From: Balanoglossus misakiensis
Lineage: Eukaryota; Animalia; Hemichordata
Assembly: GCA_040954595.2 (NCBI GenBank)
Contig: CM082587.2
Location: 6,313,705 to 6,377,704, forward strand
DNA length: 64,000 nucleotides
Direction of reading: 5' to 3'
The position numbers were made by a program, and so were the translations under genes. Positions 29,819 to 60,052 of the stretch are shown piece after piece. Every line of letters begins with the position of its first letter. Position 1 is the stretch's first letter. The notes below the pieces were generated by a model. The model did not search any database and was not told the DNA's origin. It worked only from the letters and a program-made list of their open reading frames with translations.

Positions 29819-30460
29819 CTACTTCTCTATCCGCCCCGACTTGACTTCCAAGTAAATTGGGAGGGTGTTGTACTGACACCTATCGCCAGTAAACTCCGGT
29901 GGACATCTGAAAATAATGACAGAATTTGATTGGGTGAAATCCCAACTTCTAGTATCGTACTTTTAATCGTGTTGTAGACACGGTTCTTACAGATTGACCC
30001 GAGTGACTTGTTTCGCCATCTTCTACGTGCCCTGGCAATGTTAATTATCGCATAAAAATGCCAATTAAATGAAATAAAATAAAACCCTGGGTCCATGTTG
30101 ATTATTACTTAATGAAACAATGTGATTTTTTTCTGGTAAAGTCTTGACCAGCTTGACCAAAAAATCAGTAACCCATAAAAACTACAGCGAATGAGGAAAC
30201 CATTACAGTATTGAATCATAGCTATGGTATTCTCCACCAAATTGAGTAATGTACTCTTTTGTTCACAGAATCTCACAACAAGAGATTGCGTTGAAATCAC
30301 ACAAAGCTTAACGAGGCAATGAATAGTGTCAGGACTCACTCGCAGGTTTCGTGGGGGTCGTTTTCTATTCCTTGCAAATAGCACACGCCACCGTGTAAGC
30401 AATATGATGATGCTGTCTCTTTTGGGCAGAGCTTCAAGTAACAGTGTCTGCCTCCATATC
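29819..30460 (-). CDS. Last two exons of the giant gene: EGF/neuregulin-type ErbB-ligand EGF module [29 protein letters not shown](E)[28 protein letters not shown]
   Basis: Manual translation of 30460-30340 plus 29906-29819; phase-2 intron between Cys4 and Cys5. Confidence 0.85.
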
Positions 30461-57400: not shown

Positions 57401-60052
57401 AGAAATCACAACAGTTACTATCACTTGTTATCCCGCATGAATAAAGTTTCTCACTTCTTCCGTCGTTCTGCCAAAGAGCGTTTGCTCATTAATTAAAACA
57501 AAGAAACCCATACATACCATGCATTTTCAGAGAAATGACTGTCTGATCTTAAATGTGGTGTAGATAATTTACTTAAAATCTGAAATGCACATTTTGAAAT
57601 TGATATATGTTTGTTTTATTGGCTAAGAAGAGTAATTCCTGCATTTTGTCTTAAAGGGACAAAGTCTCTCTCTCGCTGCCCTTTTTCCATTAATTATGTT
57701 TGATACAAAACACTGCTTATGTTAATGTACATGTGGATATATAGTGAATCAATGATCAACCACACACAACTTCCATCCCACTTGTATGATATGAGAGTAA
57801 AAACTCGCCCAAAATGAATAAATGGTAAAGAACGATTATTCATTTTGGCGAGTTTTTTCACTCTCCTGTCTATAAGAGGGATGGAAGTTGTGTGTGGTTG
57901 AACGTTCATTCACTATATATCCACATGTAGAATAACAAACGGTGTCTTGTATCAAATACAATTAATGGAAAAAAAGGCAGCGAGAGAGAGAGACTTTGTC
58001 CCTTTAAAGATAAGATATGAGCAAGAGTTGATGTGGCTTATTGTCACTAGTAGCACTCGAAAAACTGAGGTTTGAAATGTGTAAATTCTCAGTGAGCCAA
58101 ATATAATGACCTGTTCATTCCCTCAAGTTTACTATGGTTATCAGTATCAAGATTATCCTTCTTCTTATTATAAACTATGTATAGAACCACGTGTGAAAAT
58201 TTGAGATTAATCGGTTGATGTTGTTATATTCCTTTGAATTTTGCAAGGTAATTTGAAAACCATCGGGACAGGTTTCACCTGGACCTGTTACCGTCATCCT
58301 TCATCATGATTTTTATGATGAATGCATTGTATTTCTCTATTATAATTGCAGTCCCTTGACATGAACTAAGATTAATGACAAGAGATCAGAATTGACTTGA
58401 ACACACAAACATCAAAAAAGATGTGGCGACGGTTGAAGAAATATTGAATGTTAATTCATCGTCTCCTGTGTCATTTTATCGTTTTACTTGATGTCCCAAA
58501 ACCTATATTTATGGCACATTATAACCTATGTGTCAGCTCTTCCTGGCATGACGTCATAATTTAATAACGGGAAATGATAGTGACACGAATCTAATCCGGA
58601 CCACAGCGAGCGACCAACGACTTCAAATGGGCGCAAAATAATTGATTCCGGTTAGAAAGCCCATTCAAAGAGTTTTGATCTACGCTGCTCGAATTAGCCG
58701 AGGTGTCGGGAGTGAATTCATAAATCTTTTTTTTAAGATAATCGAAAACGGTCTGGAAAGGTCAGTTGGCCGATGCACAGTCGTCATTAAGTCGCGATTT
58801 CGTATGATTTCATGAAAGCGGATAAGAGTTAAACTGTAACCTTTTTTGCGCGGCAAATCGTTCAGCGGTAATCTGTTCTAAGAGCTCGTCCTTCTATGAA
58901 GTGCTCTTTACTTGTATGTGCTGCAGTGTATCGTCGATATGCTTTGTTACATTTGGCTATCATTCGTTGTCTATACTCTAAGCTAAGATGTGACCTTAAC
59001 TCCCTATGAGCTGCAACTCCATAAAAATTAGGAATATGCTTTTAATTCTGTCTTTTAAATGATATTACCTGATAGTATATCACGAAAACACTTATATATT
59101 ACAAAATTGCCTTAAAATAAATATCGAAAATTTCTGCAATTTAAATTTTTTTTAAATTTGTAGTGTAATTATACTTCAGTACATACATCTGTATGGGCTA
59201 ATGGTAGTACAGCTTGAAAAAAAAATTATAATTATCCCAAAAGTTGCAGCTCACAGGGCTTTAATACGGAAATTAAAAGTTGGAACCCTACCTCGTTTGC
59301 TGGATTCTGAAGCAAGCGGTGGTGGATCCATAGGGTCGTTAAACACGGACGTAAACACCTTCAACAAGAATTTTGAGAATTATTCTTACAATGAAAACGG
59401 ACTGAGCTGCACAGAAGCAATGTACTGACCATTGATTTCTTTATCAATCCATTTGATAAAAAACAAAATGAATGTATAAATTGTAGCCAGTCTCAGCTGA
59501 TATGAAACAGTATTTGTCACTATAAATTGTTGCAATTTTAACAAAGACATGTGCTGACACCAGGGTTGTGTTTTATTTAGAATGATACATTCTTATCACT
59601 GAAGCATTCGTTACAGTCCGACCACAGGTGGCTTTTTATTTTGGCCTAGAATGGGTAAAAAATACGAAGTGTTTCTTTTTTTACTGTGTCGATAAGGAAA
59701 GTCTATGGTCAGTACATTACTTTTGTGCAGCTCAAACCTTTTTCATTGTATTTTTGAGAAATTCTGCATTGATATTTATATTTAGAACTCTCGCAAACCA
59801 CAGTTGGAATGGCTTTATAGACAGGCATGCAGACAGGAAGGCAGGCAGACAGACAGACAGACATAGGTTAGAAATCAAAATGGCAAAAATCATAATGATC
59901 ATCGTCCCAGTAAAAGTTCAGCGTTTTCTTTCATGTTAATCATTATCACATATATAAGCAAAATGAAAAAAAAAGGAAATATGACTCACATTGTGAAAGA
60001 GCATGATGAAGACGAAGGAAACACGTTGCATCCTCCTTACAGCTACATACAT
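29819..60052 (-). CDS. Giant secreted Gla-(EGF)~78 protein, ~44 coding exons, ~3,100 aa: signal peptide, gamma-carboxylase propeptide, Gla domain, ~77 mostly Ca-binding EGF repeats, C-terminal ErbB-ligand-like EGF
   Basis: Exons joined by phase: 60052-59990, 59358-59292, 57338-57160, 56700-56676, 55113-54994, 51579-51530, 51420-51258 ... 35900-33852, 33600-31900, 31668-31557, 31079-30925, 30460-30340, 29906-29819 (TAG). AATAAA on the minus strand at 29775-29780. The first two exons are less certain. Confidence 0.85.
31900..33600 (-). CDS. 1701-nt exon encoding 15 tandem EGF repeats (part of the giant gene)
   Basis: ORF 31889-33634; repeated D/N-I-D/N-E-C...PC.NGG.C.D....Y.C.C..G..G..C. Confidence 0.95.
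33852..35900 (-). CDS. 2049-nt exon encoding 18 tandem Ca-binding EGF repeats (part of the giant gene)
   Basis: ORF 33805-35970; 18 six-Cys units counted. Confidence 0.95.
45111..45244. mobile_element. MITE-like element with TIRs AGGGG(C/A)GAACCAT(T/C)TGATTTC...GAAATCA(A/G)ATGGTTCTC; a second copy at ~48067-48237
   Basis: Matching terminal inverted repeats in two separate introns. Confidence 0.7.
50650..51061. repeat. 4 x 103-bp near-identical tandem repeat, each containing a 68-nt half-EGF exon of the giant gene
   Basis: Units start at 50650, 50753, 50856, 50959; one substitution seen among the spacers. Confidence 0.95.
51688..51735. repeat. (TACA)n microsatellite
   Basis: Direct observation. 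Confidence 0.9.
55340..55400 (+). mobile_element. Interspersed repeat fragment with core TTAACACAGAGATGGCGGCCATTTTGAATTTCAAA; other copies at ~20712-20762 and ~25798-25833
   Basis: Three diverged copies in the window; contains a YY1-like ATGGCGGCCATTTT core. Confidence 0.7.
56676..57338 (-). CDS. Propeptide+Gla exon (57338-57160) and 25-nt aromatic-stack exon (56700-56676) of the giant gene
   Basis: [68 protein letters not shown]; canonical LERECxEExCxxEEAxEVFE Gla motif and FWxxY. Confidence 0.95.
57651..58007. mobile_element. ~350-bp almost fully palindromic MITE flanked by TTAA (termini AGGGACAAAGTCTCTC...GAGAGACTTTGTCCCT), Kolobok/piggyBac-type non-autonomous element
   Basis: ~170-bp imperfect inverted arms around ~57825-57835; TTAA at 57651-57654 and 58004-58007. 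Confidence 0.85.
58997..59263. mobile_element. TTAA-flanked MITE-like element (TIR CCCT.TGAGCTGCAAC); a related terminus at ~48544
   Basis: Left end TTAACTCCCTATGAGCTGCAAC, right end GTTGCAGCTCACAGGGCTTTAA; 48544 reads TTAAAGGCACATAAGCTGCAACTTTTGGGA. Confidence 0.65.

Follow-up and report, generated by a model that had tools for sequence, protein, structure and literature searches.

A 64,000-nucleotide stretch of DNA from the hemichordate Balanoglossus misakiensis (contig CM082587.2, positions 6,313,705 to 6,377,704; referred to here as the window) contains, on its minus strand, a gene predicted to encode a giant protein that opens with a propeptide and a Gla domain, continues through 78 epidermal growth factor (EGF) modules and closes on an end resembling the ligands of ErbB receptors. 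We tentatively read its product as a Gas6-like, surface-anchored ligand for EGFR/ErbB presented on a long jointed stalk, an interpretation that appears quite possible from the sequence, if somewhat short of probable. The parts, and the logic of joining an anchor, a spacer and a ligand, are known from other proteins, but our searches met the combination of a Gla domain, an EGF array and an ErbB-type end nowhere else.

The gene model consists of 44 exons joined by genomically predicted splicing into one open frame, with the sole stop at its end. All 43 introns have GT-AG boundaries and their median length is 310 nt. The exon chain was assembled by six-frame reading (cysteine-rich exons from 55113 to 29819, Gla exon 57338-57160), automatic chaining and hand correction, in which 47278 and extra copies of exon 8 were taken out as spurious exons of the automatic chain; splice sites were scored with the gene's own donor and acceptor matrices. 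With a start at 60052 the coding sequence spans 9,345 nt and 3,114 amino acids, and with our preferred start in the 63182-63141 exon the protein has 3,107. The predicted order is leader, propeptide, Gla domain, 78 EGF modules, an 18-residue tail and stop, giving a mature protein with a computed mass of ~328 kDa and isoelectric point (pI) of 4.2. The 469 cysteines C-terminal of the Gla domain correspond to 78 six-cysteine modules (cysteines C1 to C6) plus one extra cysteine in EGF74, and their spacing is 4-5-8-1-8 in 68 modules. The initial annotation had proposed that leader, propeptide/Gla and EGF array are spliced in a single frame, with ~77 EGFs and a terminal module; the 44-exon frame agrees with this, and the cysteine parse yields 77 + 1. 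It had also described a stop reached without a transmembrane, protease, LamG, CUB, avidin or LNR/ankyrin domain. The model contains no transmembrane segment, as the highest 19-residue hydropathy (1.74) falls within an EGF, and none of the other domains, for which there is no room because every residue is accounted for by the Gla domain and the EGFs. The features of the gene are as follows, from its 5' end.

63141..63213, minus strand: probable exon 1, with the end of the 5' untranslated region (UTR), an in-frame stop and then an ATG at 63182, a hydrophobic signal-peptide start and 14 codons, phase 0 out (acceptor 9.1, donor 10.3).
59990..60052, minus strand: signal exon of the initial annotation, an alternative or optional in-frame exon, phase 0/0 (donor 7.3, acceptor 3.8).
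59292..59358, minus strand: exon 2, signal-peptide end and linker, phase 0 to 1, GC content 0.51 as in other exons (donor 7.7, acceptor 1.7).
57160..57338 (179 nt), minus strand: propeptide and Gla domain, phase 1 to 0 (Pfam Gla 43.1 bits, cut-off 27, E 4.7e-11).
56676..56700, minus strand: aromatic-stack mini-exon of 25 nt, phase 0 to 1, with a 25-nt counterpart in contig L002, which carries a Gla2-type gene.
54994..55113, minus strand: EGF1, 120 nt, phase 1/1, with a long C2-C3 loop like that of ascidian Gla2 (cysteine parse, L002 comparison).
48347..51579, minus strand: exons 6-15, EGF2-11, five two-EGF units (50/68 nt + 157/163 nt exons) with 59-64% amino acid identity among units, silent divergence (pS) 0.73-0.81 and replacement divergence (pN) 0.23-0.24.
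50652..51063, minus strand: exon 8 and its acceptor in four tandem 103-bp copies with 0-3 differences; donors 2.6, 2.6, 2.6 and 8.2.
36211..47985, minus strand: exons 16-38, EGF12-42, mostly triplets of ~168/165/123 nt (four EGFs each), all phase 1.
33852..35900, minus strand: giant exon of 2,049 nt, EGF43-60 (cysteine parse).
31900..33600, minus strand: giant exon of 1,701 nt, EGF61-75, EGF74 having a seventh cysteine (cysteine parse); with the preceding exon it makes up EGF43-75 of the stalk.
31557..31668, minus strand: C1-C4 of EGF76, degenerate ErbB-ligand type, spacing 7-5-10-1-8, with a phase-2 intron between C4 and C5; 5/8 matches in the PDB are neuregulin/heregulin (E 0.12-0.46).
30925..31079, minus strand: remainder of EGF76, then EGF77 behind the chain's one long linker (16 residues); Spitz is matched by residues 1-16 (E 0.24), and the rest is Notch-type.
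30340..30460, minus strand: C1-C4 of EGF78, with a phase-2 intron between C4 and C5; neuregulin-1 is the best PDB match (E 0.29, 2/4 matches).
29819..29906, minus strand: last exon, with C5-C6 of EGF78, the 18-residue tail and the stop (29821-29819); neuregulin-1 supplies the top three of 12 PDB matches (E 0.044-0.048).
29775..29780, minus strand: AATAAA, 39 nt past the stop; a second AATAAA is at 29508.

The tail contains two modules of ErbB-ligand type, a degenerate EGF76 and an intact EGF78, where the initial annotation had recognised a single terminal one. These are the only two of the 78 modules interrupted by an intron between C4 and C5, a position that marks ErbB ligands (PMC1618406, PMC11686035), as does an arginine before C6 (PMC1618406). 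The criterion of Stein and Staros also needs a nearby transmembrane segment, and it picks up mucins and meprins that have not been shown to be ligands (PMC1618406). Tyr/Phe before C2 is confined to EGF78, and so is Leu/Met at C6+5; Arg before C6 occurs in 10 of the 78, and all three marks come together in EGF78 only, with none in EGF76. We take Tyr before C2 and Leu at C6+5 to be residues needed for ErbB agonism, along with Arg before C6. From C5 to C6+1, EGF78 is identical to neuregulin-1 beta at 10 of 11 residues. Neuregulin-1 leads the structural matches of both EGF78 halves, and neuregulins and heregulins stand narrowly behind the mussel foot protein PVFP-5 for the first half of EGF76; the controls EGF1 and EGF77 retrieved Notch and clotting factors. 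The case for an ErbB-type tail rests on the agreement of individually weak E-values with intron position and residues, and on this footing the proposed ErbB-like character of the last EGF appears sound.

EGF75-76 and EGF77-78, at the C-terminal end, have the look of a pair that was duplicated, with the sole long linker between them; the other linkers, 76 of 77, are 4-7 residues long. The last exon is the only candidate for a C5-C6 exon downstream of EGF78 C1-C4. When five donors after C6 were combined with 43 downstream acceptors, no credible membrane exon emerged: the single hydrophobic join passed through a donor scoring -5.2 into the signal peptide of the next gene. This is consistent with the earlier view that the stop is not replaced by a downstream transmembrane exon.

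At the other end, the propeptide aligns with those of factors IX and X, terminates in the furin site RMKR and contains F-16, A-10, L-6 and R-4, positions that presumably serve carboxylase recognition. The best PDB match of the Gla exon is factor IX pro-Gla (E 1.3e-10). The first 48 mature residues include 14 glutamates (positions 8, 9, 18, 20, 23, 24, 29, 30, 33 and 36, and four more), and the two-cysteine loop of the Gla domain is present, as are Trp and Phe in the N-terminal Gla loop. With propeptide and Gla domain both well formed, this head is predicted to anchor to lipid.

Comparison of Gla-EGF1-EGF2 with proteins fetched from 150 of 296 Gla relatives gave the best score to Gla2 of Phallusia mammillata (P0049, CAB3249233.1; 123 bits, the next 98), a Delta-like protein that combines DSL and Gla domains with 12 EGFs and a membrane segment, and the closest relatives of the Gla head in this set are ascidian. 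In the Gla2-type gene of L002 the exons after Gla measure 25, 120, 50, 163 and 168 nt, with phases 0/1, 1/1, 1/0, 0/1 and 1/1; those of 25 and 50 nt were located by pattern, with one candidate each. The window gene has exons of 25, 120, 50 and 163 nt and, after four additional two-EGF units, one of 168 nt, with phases as in L002. The order of pro-Gla exon (phase 1/0), aromatic-stack mini-exon and phase-1 EGF exon is likewise the same, and the Gla exon itself is 167 nt in L002 versus 179 nt here. Sharing of exon order straight after Gla points to common descent and to the Gla domain and array belonging to one gene, an argument tempered by the fact that exon lengths in the array follow intron positions within 38-residue repeats, some of which recur in EGF arrays. 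Exon 6 starts in phase 1 at a module boundary, with the length seen in L002, and the 3.4-kb intron after EGF1 yielded no first exon with a signal peptide. The exon match and this lack of a first exon support the proposal that the Gla exons are not a separate short gene. Compared EGF by EGF, only EGF1 has a reciprocal-looking best match in Gla2 (119 vs 118, z 2.1), and no collinearity beyond EGF1 was seen at the protein level.

Between these two ends, 75 of the 78 modules are Notch-type. Among the repeats pS is 0.73-0.90, near saturation, and pN is low at 0.23-0.36, a pattern of high silent and low replacement divergence as expected of an old and constrained coding array. The strict calcium-binding consensus is found in 46 of the 78 modules, and a looser one in 53; it is missed by 17 of the first 25 modules and by 7/33 in the giant exons. 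In PMC4826273, pairs of calcium-binding EGFs are described as rod-like, and modules that do not bind calcium as bends or hinges in Notch1. The initial description of a calcium-stiffened rod is therefore overstated. If each module measures 2.5-3 nm, as we assume, the stalk would have a contour of ~200-230 nm, which is an upper bound on its length.

Some further properties of the array are recorded here. The 35-nt gaps between the copies of exon 8 make these mutually exclusive, and only the last copy has a strong donor; the copies may represent recent tandem expansion or an assembly artefact. The two giant exons hold 33 modules (GC content 0.51-0.56), whereas 36 introns divide the 42 modules 5' of them, and the giant exons may reflect intron loss or expansion within an exon. 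The seventh cysteine of EGF74, near the C-terminal end, is probably unpaired; it may serve to cross-link chains, or may be an error in the sequence.

Of the whole model, the leader is least certain. Its first coding exon was initially placed at 60052, whose splice sites are weaker than those of the 63182-63141 exon. When joined to exon 2, the 63213-63141 exon gives a 12-residue hydropathy (KD12) of 2.77, against 1.97 for the 60052 exon. A KD12 of at least 2.7 is reached by 3 of 52 ATG-to-donor candidates joined to exon 2 from both strands of the window: the 63141 exon itself, a second next door in the C13 peptidase region and a third that lies within a giant exon but out of frame. The 63182-63141 exon, which falls outside the span originally annotated, is thus the more likely first coding exon.

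Under our preferred reading as an anchored ligand, the exons would be spliced into one mRNA and the product secreted, cut by furin at the propeptide and carboxylated with vitamin K. ErbB ligands normally keep their signal local by means of a transmembrane anchor; here that task would fall to the Gla head, through binding to calcium and to mineral or membranes bearing phosphatidylserine, and 75 EGF modules would form a jointed stalk between head and tail. EGF78 would bind an EGFR/ErbB receptor on another cell, either at the stalk end or after cutting of the 16-residue linker before EGF77, a possible site for freeing the last two modules. Such a gene could have originated as a duplicate or relative of a Gla2 gene without DSL head and membrane anchor, followed by tandem exon expansion and by capture, then duplication, of an ErbB-ligand exon pair. 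Precedents include the bridging of phosphatidylserine to receptors by Gas6 and protein S (PMC13648709, PMC5686386) and the secreted ligands without a membrane anchor reported in planarians (PMC4914847). The fuller scenario is doubtful: a vitamin K-dependent EGFR/ErbB ligand from a Notch-ligand gene lineage known in ascidians, its Gla domain docking on phosphatidylserine-exposing membranes of damaged or dying cells while two neuregulin-type modules reach receptors up to ~200 nm away, as a Gas6-like bridge from damage to growth. A role in wound sensing or regeneration is speculation, though tissue damage does release an EGFR ligand in C. elegans (PMC11686035). The initial interpretation is supported as regards the architecture, a single gene, the lack of a transmembrane segment and the ErbB character of the last EGF. 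It overlooked that there are two ErbB-type modules, that the gene is akin to ascidian Gla2 and that a better first exon exists.

Several observations weigh against an anchored ligand. The E-values of the ErbB-type halves are weak (0.04-0.5), the 8-5-12-1-8 spacing of EGF78 is atypical, EGF76 has no Arg before C6, and no transmembrane segment adjoins EGF78, the stop lying 18 codons past C6. The need for 75 spacer modules is unexplained, given that Gas6 uses four. At the head, the N-terminal Gla loop has two more residues than that of factor IX, which makes its lipid affinity uncertain; loop length differs among clotting factors, according to PMC9669250. The acceptor score of exon 2 is low (1.7). 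No supported set emerged from a Gla-EGF1 tree of 25 rows, in which the window sequence was placed neither with Gla2 nor with any other group, L002 and P0049 being nearest to it by path only. The DSL exon of L002 lies 8.6 kb upstream of its Gla exon and the window holds 6.6 kb, and no orthologue was found in the searches given below.

The same polypeptide could serve as a secreted matrix or adhesive fibre, its Gla domain binding calcium, mineral or membranes, its acidic EGF array acting as scaffold and its ErbB-type modules being relics or self-association ends. Marine invertebrates commonly have matrix and adhesive proteins of the poly-EGF kind, and the predominance of Notch-type modules, the large acidic product, the lost arginine of EGF76 and the affinity of that module to PVFP-5 all suit a fibre. 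We nevertheless consider it somewhat unlikely, as Tyr, Arg and the C6+5 Leu are all retained in EGF78, at the free end, and its last loop is nearly that of neuregulin-1 beta. That same set of residues, taken as those of agonism, argues against a tail acting as a decoy or low-affinity modulator that soaks up or blocks receptor at anchored surfaces; the atypical loops of EGF78, the degeneracy of EGF76 and the EGF module directly N-terminal to the ligand would fit a decoy, which we hold to be very unlikely.

Two other possibilities concern the gene's boundaries. If the true N-terminus lay beyond the window and comprised C2 and DSL domains as in Gla2, the product would be a soluble hybrid of Notch ligand, Gla protein and ErbB ligand. 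The exon structure common to Gla2 and the weak exon 2 acceptor are compatible with this, and the distant DSL exon of L002 has a phase-1 end that would join to the Gla exon. No DSL or C2 domain was found in the window, including the 6.6 kb upstream of the Gla exon (best E 0.65 vs 2e-13 in L002), and the 63213-63141 exon is well formed, with 5' UTR, ATG and a signal-like peptide, making such a hybrid quite unlikely. The main product might instead be a short Gla-EGF1 mRNA, that of a separate EGF-array gene, or a membrane-anchored splice form from which a pro-ligand is shed. The donor of the EGF1 exon is the weakest of the gene (4.5), the intron that follows contains four AATAAA motifs where ~3 are expected, and short secreted Gla-EGF proteins exist in ascidians (P0072). 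A product of this kind is nonetheless improbable, in view of the phase, module boundary and L002-like length of exon 6, the lack of a first exon in that intron, and the single hydrophobic join among the downstream combinations, with its very poor donor.

The anchored ligand we favour finds its nearest counterparts in four kinds of protein. With Gla2 it shares a propeptide-Gla-stack-EGF1-EGF2-EGF3 cassette, five exons identical in length and phase, and the attachment of Gla to a signalling ligand; Gla2, however, begins with DSL, has 12 EGFs and crosses the membrane, whereas the window gene encodes 78 EGFs and ErbB-type end modules, with neither a membrane anchor nor a cytoplasmic tail and with no DSL inside the window. 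Gas6 and protein S are likewise secreted, with Gla at one end, an EGF spacer and a receptor-kinase ligand at the other, but the window protein lacks laminin G, has 75 spacer EGFs rather than four and would target EGFR/ErbB instead of TAM. Neuregulin-1 beta, EGF, Spitz and Vein share the C4-C5 intron and the Arg before C6, and ErbB ligands supply the best structural matches for halves of EGF78 and EGF76; unlike them, the window protein has no Ig domain or transmembrane precursor, and has a Gla head and two ErbB-type modules after 75 EGFs. Short Gla-EGF proteins (Clavelina XP_076800340.1, i.e. P0072; P0017; stingray XP_072886986.1, i.e. P0037) also run from signal, propeptide and Gla into EGFs only, with neither protease nor anchor, but have 232-288 residues, about four EGFs and no ErbB-type end. 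The array itself resembles Notch, fibropellin and eyes-shut-like proteins, to which the first giant exon is 36-49% identical among 120 listed of 3,941 matches; none of these 120 has a Gla domain or an ErbB-type motif, and the window protein lacks their other domains (LNR, ankyrin, CUB, avidin, laminin G).

Additional Gla layouts were noted. The stingray protein is arranged Gla-EGF-Gla-EGF3 (288 aa) and P0119 is Gla-EGF-ZP (538 aa). Another Gla gene (L014 4691-13183, also L015-L017) has three EGF1-type EGF exons in tandem with more EGFs behind them.

The initial annotation knew of no described protein with this architecture, and none was found in the literature or among the listed Gla relatives and poly-EGF matches. 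A HMMER search of 1.84 billion representatives revealed, among 150 listed of 296 Gla relatives, no long Gla-polyEGF protein without DSL, protease or anchor. A word-index search with the Gla exon against proteins of 105-2,000 residues, a weak search with three candidates, found nothing, and one with the first giant exon (1,193-3,405 residues) reached 49% identity at best, with no Gla in the matches listed. As these word-index searches are limited to listed matches, the absence of an orthologue from them is weak evidence. A metagenome scan of 17 loci gave none that is an orthologue as far as the fetched flanks reach.

Elsewhere in the window, the next gene on the minus strand (27103-28848) encodes a signal peptide, a coiled-coil-like stretch and a 378-codon exon with EPTP repeats; a word-index search returned no relatives of it, and its Atlas neighbours are EPTP clusters. 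A plus-strand gene (15101-23195) has at least three adenylate-kinase domains with long Glu/Ala-rich linkers and a weak ankyrin match at 19328-19558. A Peptidase C13 (legumain-type) exon, with a signal-peptide exon ending at 9264, lies at 7961-9344 on the minus strand, and a sialyltransferase (GT29) exon at 1658-2071 on the plus strand.

These observations bear on the roles of Gla domains outside blood clotting and on the reuse of a Gla-EGF cassette through exon shuffling. A survey of EGFR ligands (PMC4914847) allowed a single EGF module per ligand and by design would have excluded a 78-module protein; invertebrate surveys of this kind would miss such ligands. Both ends of the protein are small modules open to direct expression and testing. 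Should it be a true signalling ligand, EGFR/ErbB signalling would come under the control of vitamin K-dependent carboxylation, a link not found in the literature, and Gla would anchor ligands for three receptor types, TAM, Notch and ErbB.

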